Shown in pieces: positions 5,350 through 28,618 of a stretch of DNA of 28,857 nt; the stretch's first letter is position 1, and each line of letters starts with the position of its first letter. Source of the stretch: a virus (Duplodnaviria > Heunggongvirae > Uroviricota > Caudoviricetes); IMG/VR virus record IMGVR_UViG_2585427793_000015, positions 1 to 28,857 of that record; one strand, 5' to 3'. A program made the position numbers and the translations under genes. Under the pieces are notes generated by a model. It saw nothing but the letters and a program-made list of their open reading frames with translations. It did not search any database and was not told where the DNA came from.

Positions 5350-7205
5350 TACCCTTGCTCCACGCTGGTGACGCCAGCCTGCGCACTGAGTCTGACGCCG
5401 GGTTGATCCACTCTGACGCTTTTCACGCGGGCGTCACCTTCCACCACCACACGGATTTCCCCCTGCAATTGCTGCGGAAGGAAAGGATAATTCTGTGTGG
5501 GTTGCATACCTGCCCACGGTCGCGGGTCGGCAATGTTCTTGTCACCCAGTGAATTGAACCAGTCTGTTACCTTACGCCAGACGGATTCCAGTGCTTTCTG
5601 GTTGTCCTGGCTTTGTTGCGCGAACTCGCGCTCCCACGGGCTGGCGTCAGTGGCACCGGCAACGGATTTAGTGAGCGTGTCAACCTCGCCCGGCAGGGCG
5701 TGTTGCGTGGTCAGAAAATCGTAAAATTCCAGACCAGCAGCAATGATGCCTGCACCTTTACCTGCCTTTCCTCCACGGTTCCCCGGACCTTGTGGATTGC
5801 GGGAGTTACGGGGATTGCGCGATGAATCCGGCGCATCCGGCAGACCACCGGTATTACCCTTCATCCCGCCACTGCCCATATTGACCACATAAACCGGCAT
5901 CACACCGGAGCCGAAAACATCCGTAATGCCGCCGGGTATCCCTTTGCCTTTCTCTTTGGGATTCATGATGTCGTGAATGGTTTTACCGAACTGGTACGTC
6001 TTTCTGATGGCGATAATGCCACCCAGCGCGATCGCCATATACTTACCGACCTGCAACCAGTTCTGGACAGTGTTCTGGTCCACGCTGTTGAGCGCATCAG
6101 CCAGTTCCTGAACGGGCTTTGCCAGTTGTCCTTCAGCAAAACGTTGCCATTCGTTATTCAGTGATTGCATTGCAGCATTAAAGCCTTCGGCATTGGTCTG
6201 TGCGGCCTTTTGCGTGGAACCCAGATCAATCGTGCCGTAAATCATTTGTTCCATCAGTTGCCGGTTTTCAGGGTTGAGCAGCGCCTTAATCCCCTGCATC
6301 CCGGTCAGATCAAACACATCCTGAAGTTTCAGCGGGTCGTATTTGGCCCGTTTAAGGATTTCCATCATCAGCTCATAGGGCTTTTTGATGTCTTTTGTGC
6401 CTTTGACAAAAACGTCAATGCCGTTTTTTTTCAGGAACTCAATGTTCTTTTTGTCCGACAGGGAGGCATACATGGCCTGAATACTGGTTACCGTCTCATC
6501 AATGCTGCCTTTGTTTTTGGCGAACACCTGAGCAAATGCCCCCATCTGGGCAATGGCTTCCGGTCCCTGATCCTGAATGATGGAAAACAGTTTCGGGGCA
6601 GCGCGGGCAACATCGGCAACGCTGACAGACCCCACTGCGAACTGCGAATACAGCCTGTCCATCATGTTATTGACCGCATCAGCACCCCGAACGTTTTTTT
6701 CCCAGAACTGGGCCATCAGCCCGGCTGCAACCTGTCCGTCAACACCGAACGCCTGCATCATCAACCCCATGTTGCGGAGGTTGTCCACCACATACTGATA
6801 ATCACCGGTTTTCCCCAGAAGTTCGCTGGCCCCCTGACCAAGCGCAGAGGCATCAATACGAATATCTTTCTGGTTCGATACATCCCTGATTTTGTCGTGA
6901 AGCGTCTTTACCTGTTCAGTGGTTAACTGGGCATCCGTACCCATCCGGCGCATCTGCGCATCAAAATCGGCAACCTGTTTGATAGTAAGACTACTGCCAA
7001 GCCCGGCTATCATTGCCGTGTAGCGGTTACCCAGCACGTCGAGGCCACGTGTGGCAGATTCCGTAGTGGCTTTAACAAGGCGCATAGCCTTCTGATGGTT
7101 CCGGGCGAACTGCGACATGTTTGCGCCGTATTGCCGGGCTTTGGCGGTCAGGTTCCCGGCAAGGTTGATCATGATTTCCGTGCTGAGACGGTTACCTGTT
7201 GCCAT
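5349..7205 (-). CDS. Tail tape measure protein
   Basis: 618-aa ORF, Ala/Gly/Gln-rich with predicted helical segments and a glycine-rich C-terminus (GSGGMKGNTGG); follows the tail chaperone gene. Confidence 0.75.
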   Translation of the reverse strand: MATGNRLSTEIMINLAGNLTAKARQYGANMSQFARNHQKAMRLVKATTESATRGLDVLGNRYTAMIAGLGSSLTIKQVADFDAQMRRMGTDAQLTTEQVKTLHDKIRDVSNQKDIRIDASALGQGASELLGKTGDYQYVVDNLRNMGLMMQAFGVDGQVAAGLMAQFWEKNVRGADAVNNMMDRLYSQFAVGSVSVADVARAAPKLFSIIQDQGPEAIAQMGAFAQVFAKNKGSIDETVTSIQAMYASLSDKKNIEFLKKNGIDVFVKGTKDIKKPYELMMEILKRAKYDPLKLQDVFDLTGMQGIKALLNPENRQLMEQMIYGTIDLGSTQKAAQTNAEGFNAAMQSLNNEWQRFAEGQLAKPVQELADALNSVDQNTVQNWLQVGKYMAIALGGIIAIRKTYQFGKTIHDIMNPKEKGKGIPGGITDVFGSGVMPVYVVNMGSGGMKGNTGGLPDAPDSSRNPRNSRNPQGPGNRGGKAGKGAGIIAAGLEFYDFLTTQHALPGEVDTLTKSVAGATDASPWEREFAQQSQDNQKALESVWRKVTDWFNSLGDKNIADPRPWAGMQPTQNYPFLPQQLQGEIRVVVEGDARVKSVRVDQPGVRLSAQAGVTSVEQG

Positions 7206-11306: not shown

Positions 11307-11617
11307 CAGCCTTTCTCCGCTTCCCGGACAATCAGATTCGGTTCAGCCATCAGGCGGGTGGCAACCGCAGCGGTCACCGCCACATCCTCACCGGCATGTG
11401 ACCAGAAACGGCCACAGCGCCAGAACCCGTTTTCAGACACGGCCCGGACGTTCAGCCGGACAGGGGCGTCACCCTGTACAGCAGCCGGGGCTTCAGCCGG
11501 ACGTGGTTCATTCGCCTGACCGTCAGCCACAATAACGTCTGCCAGCGGTGCCGGGTTTTCCTGTGCTGCGCTGTTCTTTGCGGCTTTCGCGCCTTTGGTT
11601 CCTGCTTTTTCACTCAT
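11306..11617 (-). CDS. Hypothetical head-associated protein (Mu gp35 position)
   Basis: 103-aa ORF with an Ala/Pro-rich N-terminus, immediately after the major head gene and its downstream hairpins. Confidence 0.45.
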   Translation of the reverse strand: MSEKAGTKGAKAAKNSAAQENPAPLADVIVADGQANEPRPAEAPAAVQGDAPVRLNVRAVSENGFWRCGRFWSHAGEDVAVTAAVATRLMAEPNLIVREAEKG

Positions 11618-11621
11618 GACT

Positions 11622-11670
11622 CTGCCTTTTAAAAGGCAGTTAAAAGGGCATTCACAGCGCCTTTTAACTG
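11622..11670 (-). terminator. Stem-loops downstream of the major head gene (attenuator-like)
   Basis: Perfect 18-bp palindrome CTGCCTTTTAAAAGGCAG (11622-11639) overlapping an inverted repeat CAGTTAAAAGG-N12-CCTTTTAACTG (11637-11670), in the 78-bp gap after the T stop; only a short T4 tract follows. Confidence 0.45.
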
Positions 11671-11695
11671 CGGGTTACAGATTACGGATGACGGG

Positions 11696-12598
11696 TTATG
11701 CCGGGGTGGTGATGAACGGACTGACCACGATGTCCACATCCTTGTACCAGATGTTGGAATCGCCGCCGTTAACCAGCATGGCGTCAATGATGCGCTTCGC
11801 GGCTGCACGGTTTTTCGGCCCCACCACAAGGGTGGTCGGGCGGATGCCCAGCGGTTCACCGTTGGTAGCCTTCATACCCAGCAGCAGATTGCTGGCCTTC
11901 TCGTAGTTCTCCGCTGTCAGTGCCGCACGGGAACCGACGGCGGTCTGCCAGAAGCCGAAGCCCGCATTGCAGCGACCGTCCACCCCGTAAAGGAACTCGT
12001 TATTCTTGAAGGTGTGCTCGCTGTTCAGATCATCCAGGGCTTCAAACTTAAAGGCGCGTCGCGTCTGCCAGATGATGGGTTTCAGTACCTGAGAATCATC
12101 AATCAGGAACCACGGTTCTCCCTGGTCTGATGCCGGGGTGCCGACAACGTTGCTGCAGGTGCCGTCGCCCAGCGGGTGGTCTTCATCAAAGAAGTTCTGA
12201 CCGTCAAAACACAGGGTGTTAAACCCGGCACACAGCAGGGGGTAACACAGCTTGTCCGGGAACTCCGACGTCTGGCGGCCATAGCGTTCAGCGATAATGC
12301 TGTACTGACCAATCTGATCGTCTTCAATGTGTTCGCGTTTAACGCGGATCGAACTTTCCCAGGTTTTGTTCGCAAGGGTGTAACCATAACCGTCCAGCGT
12401 TGCCATCTGACGGGCGCTGACCCATTCTTTAATCTCCGGTAAATCCTTCATCCAGCCGTAGGTATTGGAGGCGGACGAACTCGGGATTTCAGAGGCGATA
12501 CGCTGCCACTGTGGGGTGACACCACTCAGACCACGGGTATAAGCGGCGCTCAGACAGGTGGTCAGCGCGTGAAGGACTTCGGAAGTGACTGCTCCCAT
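11696..12598 (-). CDS. Major head subunit (Mu gpT-like)
   Basis: 300-aa ORF directly after the protease/scaffold gene (1-nt overlap); followed by stem-loops, as often seen after major capsid genes. Confidence 0.85.
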   Translation of the reverse strand: MGAVTSEVLHALTTCLSAAYTRGLSGVTPQWQRIASEIPSSSASNTYGWMKDLPEIKEWVSARQMATLDGYGYTLANKTWESSIRVKREHIEDDQIGQYSIIAERYGRQTSEFPDKLCYPLLCAGFNTLCFDGQNFFDEDHPLGDGTCSNVVGTPASDQGEPWFLIDDSQVLKPIIWQTRRAFKFEALDDLNSEHTFKNNEFLYGVDGRCNAGFGFWQTAVGSRAALTAENYEKASNLLLGMKATNGEPLGIRPTTLVVGPKNRAAAKRIIDAMLVNGGDSNIWYKDVDIVVSPFITTPA

Positions 12599-14539: not shown

Positions 14540-16103
14540 GAGCAGTGTCTCCCAGTGCTCGCGCCTTAAAGCACACCTCTGCCAGTTGCAGGGCAAAGTC
14601 GTCCGCGTTCAGCGTTTCCTGAAGCTCAGGCAGGCGTTTCAGAAAGTCATCAAAACTGTCGCATTCCTGCGCCAGTGTCAGCACCGGGTTCGTGAACGCC
14701 TCGCCGGTTTTCTGCCAGTCACGCAGGGCATCATCCACCATCTGTGCCAGTTCGTCGGGGTGTTCCCGGTTCAGGGCGACGCGCTCACGGTTCATCGCCA
14801 TATCACCTGGCACCCCGGCGGACACCGGATGCAGAACATCAGCCCCGTCGTCCGGTTCAGCCAGGCCGAACCGGTCCCGCAGCTCCGATTCCTGAACCCG
14901 CAGCCCCCGGTCAATCAGCGGCACCAGAGCATCTGTCAGCGCCTTCAGATCTTCTGCTTCACTGATACGCAGAACAACGCGGGGATAGTGCGCCTGTGGC
15001 CCGTAGTTGGCCTCGATGTAGGGCCGCACCAGATATTCATTCAGCGTGTTAGCCAGCTGCCGCGCGTCCCAGCGCACAATGTCCATGCGCACCTGATTGT
15101 GCACGTCCGCCTGTGAACGCGAACTGCCGTTATCCGTGGTCATGGTCTGCCCCAGCACAGCCTTACTGATTTGCGCATCACACCATTCCGCCATTTCACG
15201 GAACAGTGCGCCGCCGTTATTCCGGCTGGCGGTTTCCTGCATCTCCAGTTGCATGGACTGCGGAATGGCACACCCGGCATCCGAGGCAATGGACGCAATC
15301 GCGTCAATCAGTACGCGGATTTGCTCCTCCGTGGCGTTGGGACCGTATTTCCCTACCGTAACCGGAATGCCGAACTTTTCCGCAAATGCCCACCAGTCGC
15401 GCACGGTAAAGGATTTCAGCATGTACATTACCGCCACCAGACGGGCCAGACCGTTACGCAGCGGCAGACCGGATTTCAGACGCGGCTGGTGAACAATGAA
15501 TTTTCCCGGTGTCAGCGGTACGCCATCCACCGGCTCATCGTCAGTCAGCAGGCGGAACTGGCGCAGCGTGGGCTTTTCGGCTTTCAGAAAACGGGGATCA
15601 ACCCACTCATAATCACGGGGCACCCAGTGGTTGTTGCGGGTGTTCCAGAGAATTTCACAGACCGCCACACCTTTTCCCAGCCCGTCGAGCAAGTCAAACA
15701 ACAGTTCGGGAATTTGCGGAGCGTCCATCAGCGCCCGGATGGCGTCCGCCAGCTGCACGTCGGCATCGTCATCACTGGCGGCAACCACCACCGGTTCGAT
15801 ACCGGCTACCGTCAGCTTGCGGGTGCGCAACACCGAAGCGTAATGCAAATCGCGTTCTTCCATCTCTTCGGCAAGGATAAAAAAATCACGTGTGATGCCG
15901 TCGGCGGCATTGCGCAGAATACCTGCCAGCCTGCCGGGATTCAGCCCGGAAGCGATACTGATGCCCGGCGAGGCCGAGCGCACCCCCGCCTGACGCGGAC
16001 GGGCCTGTACTTCATCGAGCCTCTCTTTTTTCAGCGTATCTTCCTCACCGGTTGCCGGGTTCAGCAGACGGCGAACGGCTCCGGCCAGTTGTTTCAGGTT
16101 CAC
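14532..16103 (-). CDS. Portal protein (Mu gp29 H-like)
   Basis: 523-aa ORF, ATGA overlap with the terminase large subunit stop; size and synteny. Confidence 0.8.
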   Translation of the reverse strand: MNLKQLAGAVRRLLNPATGEEDTLKKERLDEVQARPRQAGVRSASPGISIASGLNPGRLAGILRNAADGITRDFFILAEEMEERDLHYASVLRTRKLTVAGIEPVVVAASDDDADVQLADAIRALMDAPQIPELLFDLLDGLGKGVAVCEILWNTRNNHWVPRDYEWVDPRFLKAEKPTLRQFRLLTDDEPVDGVPLTPGKFIVHQPRLKSGLPLRNGLARLVAVMYMLKSFTVRDWWAFAEKFGIPVTVGKYGPNATEEQIRVLIDAIASIASDAGCAIPQSMQLEMQETASRNNGGALFREMAEWCDAQISKAVLGQTMTTDNGSSRSQADVHNQVRMDIVRWDARQLANTLNEYLVRPYIEANYGPQAHYPRVVLRISEAEDLKALTDALVPLIDRGLRVQESELRDRFGLAEPDDGADVLHPVSAGVPGDMAMNRERVALNREHPDELAQMVDDALRDWQKTGEAFTNPVLTLAQECDSFDDFLKRLPELQETLNADDFALQLAEVCFKARALGDTAHA

Positions 16104-17635
16104 AGTAAACCTCCCTCATTTTTCAGGCCGCGTGTCAGCTTCATCTGGCGGCGCGTGTTGCCTTCTTCCGGTTTCGCCGGGCGGTTCAGGCGGTGCAGCT
16201 CGTAACGGTGGCAGTCATCCTTACTGGCAAGGAAGCCCAGGAAAATGGCCACAGCGGCGTCGCCGTGACGCTTGCGGCCATCACTACCTTTAGTACGGGC
16301 ATCGTCAATGCCGGGAACACCACGCAGTAACTGAATGGCCCCGAGGTCATTGATCACGTCTTCATGCTTCGGAAGGATCAGCTCATCATCTTCAAACGCT
16401 GCACGGAAACGGGGCATGTTTTCGCGGTAGAACGCCACGGACAGCATCACCTGTTCCACCTCATCGCCGTACCGCTCCGCCGCCTGTTCTGCCAGATACT
16501 GACCATTCCCCCGTGCATCCATTTTGATACCGTCACGACGGGGCAGACGATCGCAAAGCCAGAACAGCACCTGCTCCTGCTGTTTAAACGGCACATTGCC
16601 AAGCTCAACCAGGAACGGCACCTCGCGGGTGGTGTCATCGTTCACCGTCACAGGGGCCAGTACGGTCAGGTCACCCGAACGCGCAAAGTCTTCCCCCAGA
16701 CAGTGGCGCAGGTTCTTCGGGAGTTTTTCCAGCTCGGGGCGCACCACCGTTTCCAGCCATTCCCGGATATCTGCCCGGCGCTGGCTTTCCGTCAGTGCGT
16801 TAAATTCCGGTGTGCCGGTAAAGCGCAACACTTTCCCGGTGCCACGGGCCGCACGTTCACGCAGTGAGCGGGGGATATACGTGCCGCCGCCGTTTTTCGG
16901 GACGCAGTAGTATTCCTCCAGGGCGTCTTCGCGGGTGGCGGTATTTCTCAGCAGACCTTCTTTCCATTCCGCCTCGGCCTCCGGTGACCACACCATGCCG
17001 CGCACCTGACAGATACGCCGGTACAGCCCGTCATTGCAGGCGTCATCCAGCGTGATGGTGTGAATGCGGTAATCCCGTTTTCCTGTGCGGCTTTCCTGAA
17101 TCAGCTGGTTAAACAGGTTGTCCACGCCGTCATGGGTGGAAATAAGGCGAATTTTGCCGCCCCATGTTTTCAGCGGCAGCACCGCCTTCAGCAGCTCGTC
17201 CAGTTTTTCATGGAACGCGGCCTCGTCGATGGTGACATTCCCCTGCATCCCGCGAATGTTGCTCGGGTTGCTGGACAGTGCCTTGACCTTAAAACCGCTG
17301 GCGAAGTACACGACGAACGTCAGAATGTCCTTGTCTTCGTCGGTGATCACTTCCTCGCAGATTTCTTCCGCTGCCGCATTAAACGCTTTCGCCCACATCG
17401 CCACGGCGTCGATAAATTCGCGGGCCATCTCCTTATTCGAACCGATATAAAAGTGATCGCGCCCGCCGAATTCCTTCTTCAGCGATGCCGTCAGTGCCGC
17501 ATCTGCCGCCTCCGCCCAGGTTAAACCGGTACGGCGGGGTTTCTCGGCAATTTTCAGGTCGGCATCATCCGCCACCCAACGTTTCTGATACGGCAGCAGA
17601 ACATCGGATTCACTGAACGTGTTCATCTGTGTCAT
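16100..17635 (-). CDS. Terminase large subunit (Mu gp28-like)
   Basis: 511-aa ORF upstream of and coupled to the portal gene; size and position. Confidence 0.8.
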   Translation of the reverse strand: MTQMNTFSESDVLLPYQKRWVADDADLKIAEKPRRTGLTWAEAADAALTASLKKEFGGRDHFYIGSNKEMAREFIDAVAMWAKAFNAAAEEICEEVITDEDKDILTFVVYFASGFKVKALSSNPSNIRGMQGNVTIDEAAFHEKLDELLKAVLPLKTWGGKIRLISTHDGVDNLFNQLIQESRTGKRDYRIHTITLDDACNDGLYRRICQVRGMVWSPEAEAEWKEGLLRNTATREDALEEYYCVPKNGGGTYIPRSLRERAARGTGKVLRFTGTPEFNALTESQRRADIREWLETVVRPELEKLPKNLRHCLGEDFARSGDLTVLAPVTVNDDTTREVPFLVELGNVPFKQQEQVLFWLCDRLPRRDGIKMDARGNGQYLAEQAAERYGDEVEQVMLSVAFYRENMPRFRAAFEDDELILPKHEDVINDLGAIQLLRGVPGIDDARTKGSDGRKRHGDAAVAIFLGFLASKDDCHRYELHRLNRPAKPEEGNTRRQMKLTRGLKNEGGLL

Positions 17636-18213
17636 GCGCTAATCCCCAGAAGTTCACGTTTGATGGTGTCAGCCGCACCACCTGACAGACCGCCCGTTCT
17701 GACCAGTTCTTCGGTTTTCTCTGCCATCTCCTGCGCAAACGCATCGCGGATCGCTTTCTCGCGTTTATGGCTGGGCATGGCTGCCGCTTCCAGACGCTGG
17801 GCAACCAGCGCCAGTTGGCCCAGCGCCTTCGGTGCAACGGGCTTGTCGTCTTCTGCCATCGACATGGACGTTTCAAAGGCCAGCGTTTTTACAAACTCCA
17901 TCAGCAGCTTGCCGACGTCTGATGTTGGCGCGGAACCCAGCTTTGCCGCCCAGACCTCGGCCATCTCGCGGGAGGCGCGGATTTTGGCCCCGACTTTTTC
18001 CATACGGCTGGCATAGCGGTTTAAGCCCGTCCGGCTTAACTGCATCTCTTCCGGCAGGTTGTGTTCGTCAATCAGGGCGTTGATGGCTTCGCGGATTTCT
18101 TCCTGCGTGTGCCGCTTTTCCCGCAGCATCTGATGTAACTGCTCCCGGATGCTGTCCGGGAGTAAATCCACTTTGGAAAGACGGCCACGGGTGGGGCGTT
18201 GTTCATTTTCCAT
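17632..18213 (-). CDS. Mu gp27-like protein (candidate terminase small subunit)
   Basis: 193-aa ORF, ATGA-coupled to the terminase large subunit; basic N-terminus (MENEQRPTRGRLSKVDLLPDSIREQL) consistent with a DNA-binding N-terminal domain. Confidence 0.55.
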   Translation of the reverse strand: MENEQRPTRGRLSKVDLLPDSIREQLHQMLREKRHTQEEIREAINALIDEHNLPEEMQLSRTGLNRYASRMEKVGAKIRASREMAEVWAAKLGSAPTSDVGKLLMEFVKTLAFETSMSMAEDDKPVAPKALGQLALVAQRLEAAAMPSHKREKAIRDAFAQEMAEKTEELVRTGGLSGGAADTIKRELLGISA

Positions 18214-18492: not shown

Positions 18493-18786
18493 TCAGTCCC
18501 TCGCACGGGGTTTTTTAACGCCCGGAACGCTGGACAGGCCGTTTGCCACATCCTCGCCGCTGCCGGTGATTTCAGCCACGTAACAGCCGCCCACATCAGA
18601 CAGACGAACCAGCCCCTGCTCGCGAAGCCATGCAAGCTGAGTGCGCACCACATCACGGGATACCTTATGACCGTAAGCCTGAAGGCAGGTCTGCAACACG
18701 GATTCATTCGCGCTGTCGCCACAGTCCAGCAGGGAACGCAGTAACACCAGACGACGGTCTTCAGTGAGGATCTCTTTCATCGCCAT
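18493..18786 (-). CDS. Hypothetical protein, possible winged-helix
   Basis: 97-aa ORF; the RTQLAWLREQGLV segment resembles a recognition helix/wing; 1-nt overlap with the upstream gene. Confidence 0.4.
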   Translation of the reverse strand: MAMKEILTEDRRLVLLRSLLDCGDSANESVLQTCLQAYGHKVSRDVVRTQLAWLREQGLVRLSDVGGCYVAEITGSGEDVANGLSSVPGVKKPRARD

Positions 18787-19091
18787 TAATTTTTTTCCTT
18801 TAACTCGTTCTCTAATAACAAATCGCTGATGCGGGATACCTGGCGGATGGATGGCCCCAGTTCTTTGATTTCTCCCCGCAGATTGCTGATATCCAGTTGC
18901 AGGCGGTGGAACTCATCACGGTCAGGTAAATGGTGTACCTGGCTTTCCATCACCGACACGCGGGAACGGAGTGAATCAAACTCTTCACGTTTGACGTAGG
19001 TTTTCGCCAGTATCAACTGAAGCAGGTTTATTCCTGTCATCAGCAATGCCCACAGAATGGGCCAGTTGGCTCTGATCATTTCCCAGGACAC
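18786..19091 (-). CDS. Membrane-anchored coiled-coil protein (i-spanin-like architecture)
   Basis: 101-aa ORF with an N-terminal hydrophobic segment (WPILWALLMTGINLLQLILA) followed by a charged helical region; architecture resembles type II inner-membrane spanin subunits. Confidence 0.4.
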   Translation of the reverse strand: MSWEMIRANWPILWALLMTGINLLQLILAKTYVKREEFDSLRSRVSVMESQVHHLPDRDEFHRLQLDISNLRGEIKELGPSIRQVSRISDLLLENELKEKN

Positions 19092-19303
19092 GTTTTCCTC
19101 CTGCGTTCCCGAATATGCTGACAGTCAATACAGGTCACCACATCCGGCAGCGCCGCAAGGCGTTGTGCCGGAATAACGTTCCCACAGTCATTGCAGCAGC
19201 CCCGACTATGGGGCGCTTCTTTTGTCCGCGTCTGCCAGGCGTTAACGACGCTCTGACGTTCGTTCATAACCACTTCACTGATGCGGTCGATTTCGTCGGT
19301 CAT
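19076..19303 (-). CDS. TraR/DksA-family C4 zinc-finger protein
   Basis: 75-aa ORF with a CxxC-N17-CxxC motif (CNDCG...CIDCQ), the hallmark of the TraR/DksA family. Confidence 0.75.
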   Translation of the reverse strand: MTDEIDRISEVVMNERQSVVNAWQTRTKEAPHSRGCCNDCGNVIPAQRLAALPDVVTCIDCQHIRERRRKTCPGK

Positions 19304-19908
19304 TTCGGCCCCGCAGAGATTTTGTGACGGCTCGATTTGCTGTACCGGGCAAAGCCGTCCATGGTTCTTACTCCGAGATAGCCCAGCGCCGGGGTAAGCA
19401 ACATCAGCGTGATATCCCAGTCCGGTGACGGCATATGCAGTGTGATACCTCTGGCACCGGCAATGGCTCCGGCAATCTGGCCACAGGAGAGCAACAGCAC
19501 ATAGGTCAGACTGCTGTAACAGGAAAGACGGGCCAGCAGCGGGCGCGTCTGGCGCACATAGCTGTCCGCAGCGTTGTCACCATTGCGGATGGTTTCCTGC
19601 TGTTCGTGATGCGCGGCCTGCTCGTCAGCCAGCACCAGCTTCTGCCGTTCCACCTCAAGCTGTTGTAACTGGACTTTCAGCGTTTCCAGTTGCATCAGTT
19701 GCTCCGGTGACAACGCCGTCAGTTGTTGTTCCAGAATGCGTTGCTGTTCGGTAACCGGCAGGCTTTCCCGGACGCTTTCCACCATACCGGCCACCGAGTC
19801 AGCGGCGGCAGATGTGCTACCACCAAACCAGCGCCCGACGGAACGAATCAGCCCCGGCCCGGCTTTCAGCAGAACAGAGGCGATGCCTGAAAGGGTTAAC
19901 GGATCCAC
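19300..19908 (-). CDS. Membrane protein with central coiled coil and C-terminal TM helices (3TM-holin-like)
   Basis: Start reassigned to GTG at 19908, which has a perfect GGAGG 6 nt upstream (TGGAGGTTTCCCGTG); N-terminal DPLTLSGIASVL segment, Gln/Glu-rich coiled coil, two C-terminal hydrophobic helices. Confidence 0.5.
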   Translation of the reverse strand: MDPLTLSGIASVLLKAGPGLIRSVGRWFGGSTSAAADSVAGMVESVRESLPVTEQQRILEQQLTALSPEQLMQLETLKVQLQQLEVERQKLVLADEQAAHHEQQETIRNGDNAADSYVRQTRPLLARLSCYSSLTYVLLLSCGQIAGAIAGARGITLHMPSPDWDITLMLLTPALGYLGVRTMDGFARYSKSSRHKISAGPK

Positions 19909-20321
19909 GGGAAACCTCCATACAGATAACGCTGAAGACAGAGCAGACCGCCGCAACTGCCACCACACAGCCAGAACACCGGATGCACCGGTGACATCAT
20001 CATCAGCGAGCCGAAGACGCAGCAGAAATATCCCAGCGCCCAGACCACCCATGACCACACGATGATGTGGCGACCAAAAGCCCGGTAACGGACCTCAGGC
20101 AGCAGGCGAAATGACGCATTCCCGAGGCTTGCGCTGTATGAAAACAACACCACCCCGGCAAAGGACAACAACATCAACACGAACGATCGCCAGCCACATA
20201 ACATGCTGATGATGAACATGCAGAGTGTCAGTCCGGCCAGCGGCCATGGCGTTCTCATCAGTCGGGAACAAATCAGCCAGTCACACGGTTTTAAAATTTT
20301 GTTCATTACCTTTTTCCACAT
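19896..20321 (-). CDS. Multi-pass small membrane protein (holin candidate)
   Basis: Start trimmed to an internal Met (MWKKVMNKIL); 3-4 predicted TM helices; start is uncertain (20321 or 20306). Confidence 0.45.
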   Translation of the reverse strand: MWKKVMNKILKPCDWLICSRLMRTPWPLAGLTLCMFIISMLCGWRSFVLMLLSFAGVVLFSYSASLGNASFRLLPEVRYRAFGRHIIVWSWVVWALGYFCCVFGSLMMMSPVHPVFWLCGGSCGGLLCLQRYLYGGFPWIR

Positions 20322-20532
20322 TGAATTTTTCCCTGTACTTCTGGCACTGCCAGAAAATGTCCCGTGTATCCACGGAGTTCCAGCCACGCATGTAGTAGCT
20401 GGCGTGTGTACCGTCATGACCGGTATAGTCCACCGGCTCTGGCGGCGGACCTCCGGCCATACGATGTAAAACCTCCTGACGCAGGCGGTCACGCCGCCCG
20501 GCTCTCAGCGAGGCATCCCAGCCTTTACCCAT
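20281..20532 (-). CDS. Hypothetical protein, coupled to the endolysin
   Basis: 83-aa ORF whose ATG lies 1 nt after the endolysin TGA (GGGGTGATATG); no TM segment. Confidence 0.4.
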   Translation of the reverse strand: MGKGWDASLRAGRRDRLRQEVLHRMAGGPPPEPVDYTGHDGTHASYYMRGWNSVDTRDIFWQCQKYREKFNVEKGNEQNFKTV

Positions 20533-20533
20533 A

Positions 20534-21130
20534 TCACCCCCGCGTGGCGGACATGATGCCTAAAGGGGTATCGATGATTTCCAGACAGGCGTCGGTCAGC
20601 TTTTCCATGCGGTTAAACCAGCCGTTCAGGTATTTACCCTGGGCGGGTTTTGACTTGATGATGTCGGCATAAAAGCGGGAACGACGGACAATGCAGCGGG
20701 CCAGCAACCAGTCCGGGGTGGACAGACTCACGGCCTTACGGGTACGCGGGCCGATGATGCCGTCAGCATCCACATCAGCGGCTTCCTGCAAAATCCTGAT
20801 AGCTTTTTTAACGCCATGCTGAACGGCTGCATCGAACACAAAGATCGCCACGCCATCAGGCCACTGATCACATCCGGCAGGCAGCCAGTAATCGCGCCAG
20901 TAAATCTGCGCGACCTGTTCGCGGGTTAAATCCCTGATGCGGGTATCCGGTTTACCGTCGCCGCTGACATCGGTTTTGCCGTCAATCACACCGTCGCGGC
21001 GGTCAGAAATGCCGTATTTGGTTTCGCCGCCACGGTCAGTGGGGTCATTGACATAGACGCCTTCGATATCGGGACGCTGAATAAAATTCAGCGCATGTTC
21101 AAAGGCCGGGGAGAATTTTTGATTTTCCAT
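20534..21130 (-). CDS. Endolysin, glycoside hydrolase family 108-like with peptidoglycan-binding C-terminal region
   Basis: 198-aa ORF with an N-terminal EGVYVNDPTDRGGETKYGIS motif (GH108 consensus EGGYVNDP.D.GG.T..GIT) and C-terminal DG.IGP.T pattern; first gene after the intergenic hairpin/T-run element. Confidence 0.8.
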   Translation of the reverse strand: MENQKFSPAFEHALNFIQRPDIEGVYVNDPTDRGGETKYGISDRRDGVIDGKTDVSGDGKPDTRIRDLTREQVAQIYWRDYWLPAGCDQWPDGVAIFVFDAAVQHGVKKAIRILQEAADVDADGIIGPRTRKAVSLSTPDWLLARCIVRRSRFYADIIKSKPAQGKYLNGWFNRMEKLTDACLEIIDTPLGIMSATRG

Positions 21131-21141
21131 AAAAGCACCTG

Positions 21142-21170
21142 TGAAGCAGATTTAAACGTGGTCTGCTTCA
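21142..21170 (-). promoter_or_regulatory. Inverted repeat TGAAGCAGA-N11-TCTGCTTCA in the endolysin leader
   Basis: Perfect 9-bp arms, 12-40 nt upstream of the endolysin ATG. Confidence 0.4.
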
Positions 21171-21185
21171 TAGTGCCGGAGGCAT

Positions 21186-21209
21186 AAAAAAAGCCGGATT
21201 TACCGGCTT
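21186..21209 (-). promoter_or_regulatory. Conserved dyad element AAGCCGG-N5-CCGGCTT plus T7 run, copy 1 (upstream of the endolysin)
   Basis: Perfect 7-bp inverted repeat with a 5-nt loop, followed on the minus strand by TTTTTTT; centred ~70 bp upstream of the endolysin ATG. Either a Rho-independent terminator closing the early operon or an activator site of a late promoter, or both. Confidence 0.6.
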
Positions 21210-21229
21210 CATTGAATTAAAAAAGATGA

Positions 21230-21709
21230 CTACTCATCACCTTTGATGGAGCAATCTATCATCATATTTTTCCCCATAGGGAGAAACTTTGTCTGAATGT
21301 GAAAGCCCAGAATCTTATACGTTAGTCCGTAACCTTTAACTTTTGCTGCGGAAGCCACCATGTCAATAACTCGTTCCTGCTGTTCTTCAGTTAATTGACC
21401 AATTACAGATTCAACAACCCGCGAACATGCAGCAAAGGAGGGCAGAGCGCCTACAGGATTATCATCAAAATCTTTTACAGTCGTCGTTGAACTAACGACC
21501 TTATTATTAATCATAAACAATCCAAACTTGCTGTGAGCAGTTTCGGTTCCACCGTTCTTAATTGAATCGCCCCCTTTAAGAGGCTTCCAGCTATTTAGTG
21601 CAATGAGGTCTTTTTCGGCCAGGCGTTTTTTGATTACCTCTTCAGAGGGCAGCTTTGCCGCATTAGCGCAAAATACGCTCAGTAAAAACATAAGAGGAAA
21701 GTATTTCAT
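21230..21709 (-). CDS. Secreted/periplasmic hypothetical protein (moron; occupies the position of Mu C)
   Basis: 159-aa ORF with a classic signal peptide (MKYFPLMFLLSVFCANA/AKLP); visibly AT-rich; start overlaps the mor stop as ATGA. Confidence 0.6.
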   Translation of the reverse strand: MKYFPLMFLLSVFCANAAKLPSEEVIKKRLAEKDLIALNSWKPLKGGDSIKNGGTETAHSKFGLFMINNKVVSSTTTVKDFDDNPVGALPSFAACSRVVESVIGQLTEEQQERVIDMVASAAKVKGYGLTYKILGFHIQTKFLPMGKNMMIDCSIKGDE

Positions 21710-22116
21710 GGCTCATCCTTAAATAGTTGCATTTGATATTTTCCACGCTCCAGCCTTCGCATTCTTTTGATGGCCTGATATACCGTTTTGTAGGTCACTT
21801 TGTAACGCTGCACCAACTCTGCTACGTTTTTTCCATCAAAATCACGCCAGATGCGCATGTCTCTGATCAGATTTTCCAGTATTTTCCCTTTCGGAACATA
21901 TACCTGAATCCCTCCGATATGATTGCAAATTGCCACTACCAGCTCAAGAGAGTGGGCAGGGTTAACACCAAGCCTTATCAGTTCCTGTCGCAGCAGAGCA
22001 TTCAGCTCTGAAAGTAGCGCCGGGTAAACATATTTTTCCTGATAATCGTGAAGATATTCCAGAACACTGTCGTCCCGGAAGTCTTCGAATAAATCCTGCT
22101 CTTTCATCTGTTTCAT
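21706..22116 (-). CDS. mor: Mor/C-family transcriptional activator
   Basis: 136-aa ORF with a C-terminal Mor/C-type HTH region (GGIQVYVPKG...IRDMRIWRDFDGKNVAELVQRYKVTYKTVYQAIKRM); ATGA-coupled to the gemA-like gene as in Mu. Confidence 0.8.
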   Translation of the reverse strand: MKQMKEQDLFEDFRDDSVLEYLHDYQEKYVYPALLSELNALLRQELIRLGVNPAHSLELVVAICNHIGGIQVYVPKGKILENLIRDMRIWRDFDGKNVAELVQRYKVTYKTVYQAIKRMRRLERGKYQMQLFKDEP

Positions 22117-25505: not shown

Positions 25506-26456
25506 CTACCAGTTCAGTAATTTAGGGTTGCTGTAAGCCTCCTTAAAAGCCGCCTTAATGTGACTTTTATTCAGGGATGAACCGGCACCTTTCGCCGCCA
25601 GCCACGCATGATTCAGTGTGTGAGTCAATACACGCAATCCCCCGGGCTTTTCGGCTACCCTCATCAGCAGGTCCAGCTCATCTTCCTGTGTTACTCCCCA
25701 TGCTTTGGCTACAGCCATCACATCAGTCTTTTTCACTTTGCGCAGTTGTTTTGTCATGGCAAAACGGCTGAACAGACGGGCCAGTTCATCAGTCCCACGA
25801 CGGGTGGCATCCGCCATCTGTTTCGGGTTGCCAATTAAAACCATCCCCACGCCAGTGGCATCCTGAATGGCGCGTAATTGCTCCAGACCATCCACACTTA
25901 AGTGATCAGCTTCATCAATAATCAGCAGGGGGTTAACACGTCCACTGGTTTCTTTTCCACCGCCCAGTTTTCTGCGAATGGCGCGGGTTATATTCCCCTT
26001 ATTTCTTCCCGGATTATTAATTTCCAGCGCATATGCTACTTCAAGGAGGCATTCCGTTACGCTCGAATGTGCCGGAGCAAGAGTCACCATCCAGGCATTA
26101 GCTGTTTTGCGGCAATATTCCCGGGCAGCAAAGGTTTTTCCGACACCCGGTACGCCAACAACGACACTGATAATCCCGAGTGAGCGCACTGTTTTAAACA
26201 GCTCATGCAAATCACAAAATGTCTGGGTCTTCACAACGCCGGGGGCACCTGACAAATTCTGCCCTTTCTGCCATACCCGATACCATTCCTGTAATTTGTC
26301 ATACATGCCTTCAACATTGCCTCTGTACTTTCCTTTGCGAAGATCAGAGAGAGTTGCCGGAGACATTCCGGCTTCATCAGCAATATCTTCCTGAGACTTG
26401 TCGCCCTCGTTAATCAAAGCGTTAATAGTGTTGAAAACATCATCAATATCAGTCAT
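25506..26456 (-). CDS. B: DNA transposition ATPase B (MuB-like, AAA+)
   Basis: 316-aa ORF with an N-terminal HTH region, Walker A (GVPGVGKT) and Walker B (LLIIDEADHL); GGAGG ribosome-binding site 8 nt upstream; follows the transposase gene. Confidence 0.9.
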   Translation of the reverse strand: MTDIDDVFNTINALINEGDKSQEDIADEAGMSPATLSDLRKGKYRGNVEGMYDKLQEWYRVWQKGQNLSGAPGVVKTQTFCDLHELFKTVRSLGIISVVVGVPGVGKTFAAREYCRKTANAWMVTLAPAHSSVTECLLEVAYALEINNPGRNKGNITRAIRRKLGGGKETSGRVNPLLIIDEADHLSVDGLEQLRAIQDATGVGMVLIGNPKQMADATRRGTDELARLFSRFAMTKQLRKVKKTDVMAVAKAWGVTQEDELDLLMRVAEKPGGLRVLTHTLNHAWLAAKGAGSSLNKSHIKAAFKEAYSNPKLLNW

Positions 26457-26530: not shown

Positions 26531-28618
26531 TCAGGCCAGCGGATCATCTTCTTCCTGCATGGCAAAAAGTTTTTGCATCCCCAGCCTGAAATCGCGTTCA
26601 AATTCTTCGTCATGCTCTTCTTCATATTCCGGTTGCTGAACTGCCACCACATTACCAACCGGGCGATAAACATTATCCAGCCAGGGTTCGGCCTGTTTGT
26701 GTTCCAGAATCTGAATACCTTCATCTTCAGCATCACGAATTTTTTCCTCAGCACGTTTGCGCATTCCTTTAATACGCTGCTGCTGTTTGTGATATTCCGC
26801 ACTGACAGGGAAGGCTGCGCGTTTATTCCCGTTCCATATCGCCTCACAGATAAAGCTGTCGTCCTTACGTCGTACCGTAATTCGCTCGGCATCGTGAATG
26901 TCATAGCTGATAAGTACCTTACGGCCATGTTCATCACGCAGCTCTGGCGCGTAGTAAATATTGTTCAGCCACTGGATTTCGCAGCGTCTTACCGGACGCT
27001 CCACCATCGGGCGGAACATGTCGCGCAGCTCAAGATCACTCAGCCACTCAATTTCAGTGTCTTCTTCCGCTAAGCGTTTTTTTCTGAACTCTGCCGGGCT
27101 GTAATGCCGCCCGTTCGGTTTCATCGGCAGCTCAGAATGCGGGCGGTTGTTGTACCATTCCACGCCTTCACGAATAGCCTCGATAAGTTCCGCCCACGAT
27201 GGCAGCTCGCGCATTGCCGCTTTCTGGCGGTCGTTCAGTGGCTTGTCCTGTTGCAGGGTGTTAAACGCTGAACGCAGATCACGGTTAAGTACACGCAACG
27301 ATTCCCGGTCAGCACCTTTGCCAAAATAGGTGCGATACCTCCTGGCTATACGCATCGGCAGCGTCCGGTTCAGGCGTTCAATAATGCCGCGCCCCTGTGG
27401 ATTACCGGCAATACCGGTAGGGTGTTTAATCCCCAGACGGGGCAGAATCCCTACGACCTCTTTGTCCAGCATGTCAGCCGTTTCACCAGAACCGTTATCC
27501 GAGTAATACAGAAACGGTTTTCCGTGGTTGCGAATGCCATGCCGTATCGCTCCGGCAACAGCGAACACGTTCTCGGCAAGATCAAGACTCCAGCCAACCA
27601 CAAACCGGGTTCCACCGTCGATCACAAACGTGACTTCTGGTGAGAATGGACGTCCGTGGATCGGATGCGCACATTTCAGCTTCATACCGTGACCGTCACC
27701 AATCCAGACATAATTCACTGGCATAACTGTCCAGTCGCGGCGGGGGAACCCTTCAAGCTGACGGGATTCACTGCCGGTAACGCGTCCTTTTTGTTTCACC
27801 ACTTCCGGCAATTTCTTCATGGCATAACGAACCACATCGTAAGAAGGCATCACCTCCAGCATGTACGGTTCGTCTGCATGGCGACACTGCCATTCCGCGA
27901 CAAAATCCTCGTAGGCTTCTGACATAGGTCTGCCGTTAGCCTGGCGATACTGCGCCAGAAACTCAGGCAGCCAGCTGATTTCCTCGACTTTCACTTCGTC
28001 GCGTTTACCAGGTGCCAGTAACAGCAACCTTTCAGCGGCGTTTTGTGCTTTGTTAAATTCAGCTACCCAACGTTTGAGCGTAATTGCGCTCAGTGTTCGC
28101 TCTTTCCCTTTACGGGCATTAGCAGTAATGGCCAAAGATTCCAGACGTTCTTCCAGGTTACCCTGCGCTAACCGAGACACAATAAAACGTATAGCGCTGG
28201 CACAACTGAATCCCGGCTCCTGGCTGATTCGCAGAACTTCACAGACAAGAGCAATGCGCGCTTCTGCAACTTTACGTTGATTTTCCGTAAGCGCATTCAG
28301 ACGCTCTTCTACCAGTTGTGGCGAACCGCGATATGCCTCAACAGGCTGTACAACATTTTGTTTGCGTTCACGCTTTACAGGAGGCTGGGTAGTTATCTCC
28401 TGCGGTGCGGTTGCCATCAGTTGAGCTACATGGCGCTCACGTAACGCCCGCTGTGTAACCGGAGGGAGGCAGTCGATGCTGTATTCAATGGTTTTTGAAC
28501 CCGCACGTTTGCGCCTGAAATGCTCAGATGAGGCCAGTTTCCTTATGGAATACCGCACCCCTTGCGCAGTTCCCGGCATACCTGGTAGCCCTACAAGCTC
28601 ATTAACTGACACAAACAT
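26531..28618 (-). CDS. A: DDE transposase, MuA-like
   Basis: 695-aa ORF with an N-terminal DNA-binding region (LPGMPGTAQGVRYSIRKLA) and a central catalytic region; AAGGTGG ribosome-binding site; immediately downstream of ner. Confidence 0.9.
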   Translation of the reverse strand: MFVSVNELVGLPGMPGTAQGVRYSIRKLASSEHFRRKRAGSKTIEYSIDCLPPVTQRALRERHVAQLMATAPQEITTQPPVKRERKQNVVQPVEAYRGSPQLVEERLNALTENQRKVAEARIALVCEVLRISQEPGFSCASAIRFIVSRLAQGNLEERLESLAITANARKGKERTLSAITLKRWVAEFNKAQNAAERLLLLAPGKRDEVKVEEISWLPEFLAQYRQANGRPMSEAYEDFVAEWQCRHADEPYMLEVMPSYDVVRYAMKKLPEVVKQKGRVTGSESRQLEGFPRRDWTVMPVNYVWIGDGHGMKLKCAHPIHGRPFSPEVTFVIDGGTRFVVGWSLDLAENVFAVAGAIRHGIRNHGKPFLYYSDNGSGETADMLDKEVVGILPRLGIKHPTGIAGNPQGRGIIERLNRTLPMRIARRYRTYFGKGADRESLRVLNRDLRSAFNTLQQDKPLNDRQKAAMRELPSWAELIEAIREGVEWYNNRPHSELPMKPNGRHYSPAEFRKKRLAEEDTEIEWLSDLELRDMFRPMVERPVRRCEIQWLNNIYYAPELRDEHGRKVLISYDIHDAERITVRRKDDSFICEAIWNGNKRAAFPVSAEYHKQQQRIKGMRKRAEEKIRDAEDEGIQILEHKQAEPWLDNVYRPVGNVVAVQQPEYEEEHDEEFERDFRLGMQKLFAMQEEDDPLA

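Follow-up and report, generated by a model that had tools for sequence, protein, structure and literature searches.

A TraR-family zinc-finger gene in the endolysin-to-terminase block of a Mu-like transposable prophage of Escherichia coli

Background

What use might a transposable phage have for a TraR-type protein that is encoded between its lysis and its packaging genes? The question is raised by a stretch of viral DNA of 28,857 nucleotides (nt) (IMG/VR record IMGVR_UViG_2585427793_000015, positions 1 to 28,857; hereafter the window), in which an open reading frame (ORF) of 228 nt on the minus strand, occupying exactly positions 19076..19303 including the stop codon, begins with ATG and encodes a protein of 75 amino acids (aa), MTDEIDRISEVVMNERQSVVNAWQTRTKEAPHSRGCCNDCGNVIPAQRLAALPDVVTCIDCQHIRERRRKTCPGK. 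TraR-type proteins are an established plasmid and phage route to a reprogramming of host transcription that is independent of guanosine tetraphosphate (ppGpp), and the window gene is one more member, correctly named in the databases: the name given by the Prokaryotic Genome Annotation Pipeline (PGAP) in Escherichia coli prophages, and carried by protein-database entries 97% and 92% identical to the product, is "TraR/DksA C4-type zinc finger protein". Since the TraR/DksA label was already in use, both by PGAP and in several published phage annotations, the protein is not novel; its identity is known at the annotation level and its mechanism is known from homologs. The finding is an ordinary one, in which only the position in a presumed late operon is unusual.

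Results

The protein passes the curated cut-offs of two family models: it scores 41 bits against a gathering score of 24.9 for Pfam PF01258 (zf-dskA_traR; E 1.9e-10), and 61.8 bits against a cut-off of 59.7 for NCBIfam TIGR02419 (phage/conjugal plasmid C-4 type zinc finger protein, TraR family), with residues 3-66 aligned to profile positions 1-64 of 64. It also matches phrog_54 of the PHROGs collection (DksA-like zinc-finger protein; E 5e-19, residues 1-73 on 1-72 of 75). The best sequence match among solved structures is TraR of the F plasmid (5w1s_M, E 2e-6, residues 2-70 on 2-70); 6n57_M is also among the best, and DksA and YbiI rank after the F TraR chains. An earlier, sequence-only reading of this DNA had assigned the gene to the TraR/DksA family, and the passed cut-offs and the nearest solved structure bear it out. 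Among 1.84 billion representative proteins we found 327 relatives at E <= 0.001, mostly 65-80 aa long and aligned from residue 1. The equivalog models for DksA are well missed (TIGR02420, 24.8 against 115.5 bits; NF008045, 24.2 against 289 bits), as is the model for YbiI, the chromosomal DksA/TraR paralog of E. coli (NF008243, 32.5 bits against a cut-off of 96). The zinc fingers of Ogr/Delta, the late activators of P2, and of Mu Com have Pfam models of their own; no Pfam match of either type was found, PF01258 being the sole family at E <= 0.01. Judged by these profile comparisons, the protein is of the TraR subfamily, and not of the DksA, YbiI, Ogr/Delta or Com type.

The cysteines of the translated protein are arranged as C37-x2-C40 and C58-x2-C61 with 17 residues between them, as expected from the 75-aa CxxC-N17-CxxC protein recognized earlier (without mention of the strand, which is minus), and an alignment with F TraR gives the same spacing and the same cysteine numbering. 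This C4 zinc finger (19121..19195, minus strand) includes R48 (19160-19162) and L49. In an alignment of 116 homologs C37, C40, R48 and C58 are invariant, and D3, D6, I44, P53, C61 and E66 are conserved in at least 90% of the sequences; the window protein has all of these residues. By the residue roles given in the 2019 eLife and 2022 mBio papers on TraR, the window protein thus has both the aspartates on which activity depends (D3, D6) and the arginine that contacts the beta' rim helices (R48). Codons 3-8 (19280..19297, minus strand) read DEIDRI and form an N-terminal motif of DxxDxA type, in which D3 and D6 are retained and the third position is Ile instead of Ala. P2 Orf82 likewise has DxxDxI, and is functional, if weaker in vitro. 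At residue 8, every one of the 13 close relatives from E. coli that align there has Ile, whereas Ala is found in 92 of 106 distant homologs. The residues by which F TraR contacts beta'Si3, E46, R49 and K50, are replaced by A46, L49 and A50. At position 49 the distant homologs have Leu in 60 and Arg in 30 of 106 cases; since Leu49 is the commoner state among them, Arg-Arg at 48-49 is a trait of the experimentally tested subset and not of the family as a whole.

Two variants of these motifs deserve mention as observations in their own right. Codons 36-37 of the window gene (19193-19198, minus strand) read Cys-Cys, so that the first zinc ligand follows another cysteine; in most close relatives the pair is Phe-Cys, lambda Orf73 also has Cys-Cys, and the variant is probably neutral. 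Furthermore, a sub-clade of Mu-like TraR proteins starts with MTKAFDRA or MTRAFDRA and carries Lys or Arg at the otherwise nearly invariant D3, while D6, A8 and R48 are retained. It was found in loci L022, L024, L030, L036, L053-L056, L058-L060, L062-L065, L067, L069-L074, L077 and L081-L083 of the comparison set described below, with the match at position ~6001-6225 in full-flank loci. Gp34 of Xenorhabdus bovienii also lacks D3 and was considered as a member of this sub-clade; we rejected this, as it is 25% identical to the window protein and has a C-terminal tail resembling those of P2 Orf82 and F TraR.

The AlphaFold2 model, built on the alignment of 116 homologs (mean predicted local distance difference test (pLDDT) score 73.6), has a helix at residues 3-27, a non-helical globular zinc domain and a second helix at residues 59-71. 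This corresponds to the architecture of TraR as seen by cryo-electron microscopy, in which residues 2-27 form the N-helix, 28-57 the globular domain and 58-73 the C-helix (PMC6970531). The predicted C-terminal helix (19091..19129, minus strand) would be the equivalent of the TraR C-helix, which contacts the Si1 insertion of the beta lobe; two of its residues, Q62 and E66, are found in 105 and 110 of 120 homologs, respectively. With 75 aa, a single N-terminal helix and no long coiled coil of the DksA type, the predicted protein has the size and shape of a TraR. A Foldseek search of the PDB placed RNA polymerase-bound TraR (6n57_M) at the top, with probability 1.0 and template modelling (TM) scores of 0.48-0.50, and the top 11 matches are all TraR, DksA, YbiI or DksA2.

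Conservation of the gene was followed in 83 related loci: 80 IMG/VR contigs with a relative of the window protein, found with an alignment of 10 sequences, one E. coli prophage and two Vibrio phages. The neighbouring window proteins were mapped onto all 83. The TraR gene lies between a homolog of the upstream membrane protein and a DUF2730 gene in every locus (83/83); the winged-helix gene, the gp27-type gene and the large terminase gene follow in 81, and the same endolysin stands ahead in 77. The gene is a fixed part of the endolysin-to-terminase block in one lineage of Mu-like transposable phages. Selection on it is purifying: the ratio of nonsynonymous to synonymous substitution rates (dN/dS) has a median of 0.26 and a maximum of 0.53 in 789 pairs drawn from the 65 distinct coding sequences of the related loci. 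In the window itself, the placement between lysis and packaging genes noted in the sequence-only reading is correct, with a GH108 endolysin (20534-21130) on one side and the gp27-type small terminase (17632-18213) and large terminase (16100-17635) on the other.

The gene is joined to both of its neighbours. Its ATG (19303-19301) overlaps the TGA (19302-19300) of the upstream ORF, giving an ATGA overlap at 19300..19303 (minus strand); in each of the 83 related loci the TraR start codon overlaps or directly adjoins the stop codon of the upstream gene, in 69 of them in the ATGA form. At the other end the stop codon (19078-19076) falls inside the start region of the DUF2730 gene, for which a GTG at 19091 gives an overlap of 16 nt (19076..19091, minus strand), the same as annotated by PGAP in a collinear relative (L001); an alternative in-frame ATG at 19079 would make a second ATGA overlap with the TraR gene. 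A DUF2730 start over the 3' end of the TraR gene is the usual arrangement in the related loci. The coupling to the neighbouring genes that had been proposed is therefore seen at the start as an ATGA overlap and at the end as a stop codon within the next start region, with the upstream join kept in all loci. On the opposite strand, a 70-aa ORF (19115-19327) antisense to the TraR gene and a hairpin (19199-19214) were treated as chance occurrences, because the total of the terminator scan is near the shuffled expectation (11 terminator-like sites against 7.4 expected) and because the minus-strand frame accounts for the conservation. No RNA family was found when the entire window was scanned against Rfam.

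As a whole, the window is a Mu-like transposable prophage of E. coli, read along the minus strand. Starting from the right, the genes are transposase A (26531-28618) and transposase B (25506-26456), both of Mu type and both named after their PGAP-annotated counterparts in the collinear relative L001, then a GemA (gp16)-like gene, a Mor/C-family activator, the endolysin, three small membrane or coiled-coil ORFs, TraR and DUF2730. Behind these are a VpaChn25_0724-family protein, the gp27-type small terminase, the large terminase, a DUF935 portal, and the head and tail genes. The Mor/C-family late transcriptional activator (21706..22116, minus strand; phrog_532, E 4e-40) is named "Mor transcription activator family protein" by PGAP in L001 and is the presumed activator of the unit that contains TraR. 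A 3.2-kb region of the prophage has counterparts 93-96% identical in E. coli chromosomes, with a match in 53 of 5426 complete genomes; strains STEC388 and KFu019 are among those that carry the prophage. A megablast search of this region against the phage collection gave no match; the element was found only in E. coli genomes, as a prophage, and as IMG/VR contigs. The near-identical prophages thus reside in E. coli genomes, and the RNA polymerase of this host carries the Si1 and Si3 insertions that TraR contacts (PMC6970531).

The remaining genes of the block are all on the minus strand. The endolysin (20534..21130; GH108 and PG_binding_3 in Pfam) is the first gene of the presumed late unit. 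The cistron directly upstream of TraR (19300..20058 for the longest ORF) encodes a protein with coiled-coil and membrane segments that matches phrog_1544 (E 4e-57), for which PGAP calls a version of 202 aa in L001; it has a weak, sub-threshold match to GTA_holin_3TM and a homolog in 83/83 loci. Downstream are the DUF2730 protein of the Mu gp25 "releasin" family (18786..19091; PF10805, E 1.3e-30; 83/83 loci), and, in the slot of Mu gp26, the VpaChn25_0724-family protein, annotated elsewhere as winged-helix or ArsR-like (18493..18786; NF050184, 122 bits; 81/83 loci). The small terminase subunit of Mu gp27 type (17632..18213) matches PF11985 (E 6e-54), and the large subunit (16100..17635) matches PF03237 and is so annotated by PGAP in L001.

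Between the endolysin and the TraR gene (19300-20532, minus strand) there are three overlapping ORFs of 83 aa, up to 198 aa and up to 252 aa, each of which matches a different part of a single family of 284 residues, phrog_2121; their PGAP versions in a relative are shorter, with 83, 136 and 202 aa. The middle ORF resembles a protein with several membrane-spanning segments, and a spanin pair was not recognized among these ORFs. In Mu, the "releasin" gp25 (DUF2730) is required to free the membrane-tethered endolysin (PMC9239132). The window endolysin has no hydrophobic N-terminal signal-arrest-release (SAR) segment, although the DUF2730 gene of the "releasin" family is kept; the same puzzle, DUF2730 proteins paired with cytoplasmic endolysins, is raised in the Mu lysis paper (PMC9239132).

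The TraR gene is most likely expressed together with the late genes. A strong hairpin resembling an intrinsic terminator (21190..21210, minus strand; stem of 8 bp, T7 run) lies 59 nt upstream of the endolysin ATG. Four related prophages, some with and some without an insertion (orf159) after the Mor-family gene, have the same hairpin and 59-nt spacer letter for letter. We infer that it marks the boundary between the operon containing Mor and the unit of lys, TraR and terminase. From the endolysin to the large terminase no sigma-70-like promoter was predicted, and on the same strand the scan gave only two weak hairpins within ORFs. Late expression is deduced from the conserved terminator upstream of lys, from the lack of a convincing terminator or promoter-like site between endolysin and terminase, and from the overlapping cistrons. 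In phage Mu the middle operon ends after C, and a C-dependent lys promoter opens the late operon. The order of terminator and lys in the window parallels this border of the Mu middle and late operons.

Two features near this border were observed in passing. In the stretch 21131-21210 (minus strand), the 59-nt spacer contains a TTTAAAT element ~20 nt upstream of an AGGTG ribosome-binding site and is a candidate Mor-dependent late promoter; the inverted repeat at 21190-21210 could be both a terminator and a binding site of the activator. An ORF of 159 aa (21230-21709, minus strand; phrog_38744) with a signal-peptide-like N-terminus, MKYFPLMFLLSVFCANAA, is inserted downstream of the Mor-family gene, ahead of the conserved terminator that precedes lys. 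It has a tblastn match in 6 of the 83 related loci, only three of which, E. coli-type prophages ~79-80% identical, are convincing, and it looks like a moron that uses a pre-existing terminator.

In phage Mu itself the slot holds gp24 (64 aa, hypothetical protein; 11524-11718 in record NC_000929), which lies directly upstream of gp25 (DUF2730), where the window has TraR. Gp24 shares the CxxC-N17-CxxC spacing of the window protein, but has ExxNxA instead of DxxDxA, no equivalent of R48 and no C-terminal helix. None of the Pfam or NCBIfam models matched it above threshold, and in a profile comparison (hhalign) the probability was only 66%. On these profile results we rejected gp24 as a bona fide member of the TraR family and keep it as a lead only. 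It may be a degenerate relative of TraR and is probably not a working TraR.

Discussion

By analogy with its studied homologs, the gene probably encodes a functional TraR-type protein that would bind the RNA polymerase of the host through the secondary channel. F TraR binds RNA polymerase without DNA and sends its N-helix into the secondary channel, which brings D3 and D6 close to the active site (PMC6970531, PMC9239242); its globular domain contacts the beta' rim helices via R48 and beta'Si3 via E46, R49 and K50, and its C-helix shifts Si1 of the beta lobe (PMC6970531, PMC9239242). Given that D3, D6, R48 and the signature of the C-helix are kept in the window protein, the most likely function is that of TraR, namely a ppGpp-independent inhibition of host ribosomal promoters, here in the late phase.

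With F TraR and lambda Orf73 as homologous models, the steps of such a mechanism can be outlined. Once the prophage is induced, the Mor-family activator would switch on the unit that starts just past the conserved terminator upstream of lys, and the 75-aa protein would be made by translational coupling with its membrane-protein neighbours. It would fold around one zinc ion held by C37, C40, C58 and C61, and R48 would dock it on the beta' rim helices. The N-terminal helix (3-27) would enter the secondary channel and bring D3 and D6 to the region of the active site, while the C-terminal helix (59-71) would touch the Si1 insertion of the beta lobe. Open complexes at ribosomal RNA (rRNA) and ribosomal-protein promoters would be destabilised with no need for ppGpp, and the shut-down of host ribosome synthesis would free RNA polymerase and precursors for late transcription of the phage and for the production of virions. 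In F TraR, Ala at E46, R49 or K50 lowers activation at least ~two-fold, and leaves inhibition and binding largely intact (PMC6970531). In view of A46, L49 and A50, together with Ile8, we would expect mainly inhibition, weak activation and a specific activity below that of F TraR.

Several points weigh against this interpretation. The window protein shows only 25-32% identity to the homologs that have been tested by experiment, and at positions 48-49 it has Arg-Leu where each of the six tested proteins has Arg-Arg. A8 is replaced by Ile, and the loss of A8 has been suggested to lower the activity of P2 Orf82 (PMC9239242). The tested phage homologs of known context are all encoded in early or lysis-lysogeny regions, not in a late lysis and packaging block (PMC9239242), and with such a difference in genomic context the biological role could differ as well. 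The timing of expression, moreover, is deduced from gene order alone, and the structural model, with a pLDDT of 73.6, deserves moderate confidence and reaches TM-scores of only about 0.5 against TraR.

The unusual position of the gene can have several other explanations. On the one hand, the protein might still bind RNA polymerase and yet be selected mainly for tuning the promoters of the phage itself, be it the Mor/C-dependent late promoters or the coordination of head and tail modules, and not for the shut-off of host ribosome synthesis. The location within a Mor-dependent block is in line with this idea, as is the stimulation of F promoters by F TraR, and the authors of the KS10 genome proposed that the corresponding gene, gp7, coordinates two head modules (PMC2628397). 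However, the Si3 contacts that contribute to activation are absent (A46, L49, A50), which weighs against a strong activator, and we regard such a role as unlikely. On the other hand, the TraR fold might have been recruited to the lysis or packaging machinery as a partner of the upstream membrane/coiled-coil protein or of the DUF2730 protein, for instance in the timing of lysis, with the binding of RNA polymerase secondary or lost. Both neighbours adjoin the gene with overlapping cistrons in 83/83 loci, and also in distant Mu-like phages of Vibrio and Shewanella, and TraR of VP882 forms a complex with QisA, a protein of the same operon (bioRxiv 10.64898/2026.07.27.740977). Mu gp24, with the same slot and the same cysteine spacing and without D3, D6, R48 and the C-terminal helix, implies that the slot can persist without RNA polymerase motifs. 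But the homology of gp24 is weak (hhalign 66%, no Pfam hit), the residues of the RNA polymerase mechanism (D6, R48 and E66 of the C-helix) vary little or not at all, in the clade as in the wider family, and the growth arrest in VP882 still requires the RNA polymerase motif (bioRxiv 10.64898/2026.07.27.740977). A recruitment of this kind therefore seems improbable to us.

A more far-reaching reading can also be put forward: the Mu-like TraR would be a fixed, translationally coupled component of a lysis cassette with the holin-like protein and DUF2730, linking the state of host RNA polymerase to the timing of lysis or packaging, possibly in a complex with a neighbour, and would not be an early takeover factor as in lambda, P2 and VP882, and Mu gp24 would be a degenerate descendant that kept a partner-binding zinc ribbon and lost the RNA polymerase motifs. 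We offer this as a speculation with little likelihood of being right. Finally, the gene could be a passenger that is neutral or in decay and serves no function at present. Of all genes in the block it is the least conserved, with 49-59% identity to relatives that are not of E. coli type compared to ~70-80% for the terminase and winged-helix genes, and Mu gp24 may exemplify decay in the same slot. Against this stand the dN/dS values (median 0.26, maximum 0.53 in the 789 pairs), the ORF intact in 83/83 loci, and the conservation of active-site, zinc and rim-helix residues; on account of the dN/dS values and the intact ORFs a neutral passenger is counted out, and this explanation is very improbable.

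With inhibition of host ribosomal promoters as the preferred interpretation, what modest interest the locus has lies in its context. Mu-like phages hold the gene in a late endolysin-to-terminase block, unlike the studied phage homologs of known context. A version with Leu-49 and without the Si3 contact would bear on two questions: whether halting ribosome synthesis without ppGpp also benefits a phage late in infection, and whether the phage can do without the beta'Si3 contact for its purpose.

Comparison with known systems

The window protein has a C4 zinc-finger domain in common with DksA of E. coli (151 aa), and its aspartate motif follows the same logic; DksA structures are among its top fold matches, but the long coiled coil of DksA has no counterpart in it. 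In build it resembles TraR of the F plasmid (PDB 5W1S, 6N57/6N58), with 75 compared to 73 aa, cysteines at the same positions 37, 40, 58 and 61, and the same three-element architecture. Identical residues are D3, D6, G41, N42, I44, P45, R48, P53, V55, Q62, E66, R67, R69 and K70. Nevertheless, overall identity is only ~30%, A8 of F TraR corresponds to Ile, and the Si3 residues E46/R49/K50 correspond to A/L/A. The two genes also differ in their setting, as the F gene belongs to the conjugative transfer operon and the window gene to the lysis and packaging block of a transposable prophage.

Among phage homologs, lambda Orf73, P2 Orf82, VHML Orf8, VP882 Orf61 and X. bovienii Gp34 bind RNA polymerase and complement a dksA deletion (Gopalkrishnan et al. 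2022, PMC9239242), and the same five inhibit rRNA (rrnB P1) and ribosomal-protein promoters (PMC9239242). They are 32-49% identical to F TraR (PMC9239242), and the four whose sequences we took from the supplement of that paper are 25-32% identical to the window protein; by sequence, the window protein, at ~30% to F TraR, lies slightly further out than the tested homologs. All are of the same size class as the window protein and share its C4 finger and R48. The N-terminal aspartate pair is likewise shared by those compared here, except for Gp34, which has K3. P2 Orf82 agrees with the window protein even in its DxxDxI, and binds RNA polymerase as strongly as TraR, with a lower activity in vitro (PMC9239242). 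In contrast to the Leu49 of the window protein, the four compared homologs have Arg49.

Genes in the same slot are known from other Mu-like phages as annotations only, and in the literature searched we found no assay of a Mu-like, late-operon, Leu-49 member of the family. They include Burkholderia KS10 gp7, Vibrio martha 12B12 VPCG_00028, Shewanella MuM16-2 p23 and a gene of Vibrio ZX4290, all annotated as TraR/DksA, and Klebsiella Kp4866-3 with a gene in the same slot of an unannotated record. These genes encode proteins of 71-75 aa and lie, as in the window, between lysis genes and the small terminase; the Vibrio and Klebsiella proteins are 34-51% identical to the window protein. The annotated TraR/DksA gene stands directly upstream of DUF2730 in Vibrio martha 12B12, 1.028.O and ZX4290 and in Shewanella MuM16-2, and in Kp4866-3 the tblastn matches to the TraR and DUF2730 proteins abut. 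In the Burkholderia transposable phage KS10 a 74-aa dksA/traR gene, gp7, was described in 2008 between the endolysin and the small terminase (PMC2628397); unlike the window, KS10 has no annotated DUF2730 neighbour. The tested phage genes of known context, by comparison, belong to lysis-lysogeny, transcription-regulation or replication regions (2022 mBio, PMC9239242). In this respect the window gene departs from them: theirs are genes of early, replication or lysis-lysogeny regions, whereas the window gene is part of the presumed late block from endolysin to terminase.

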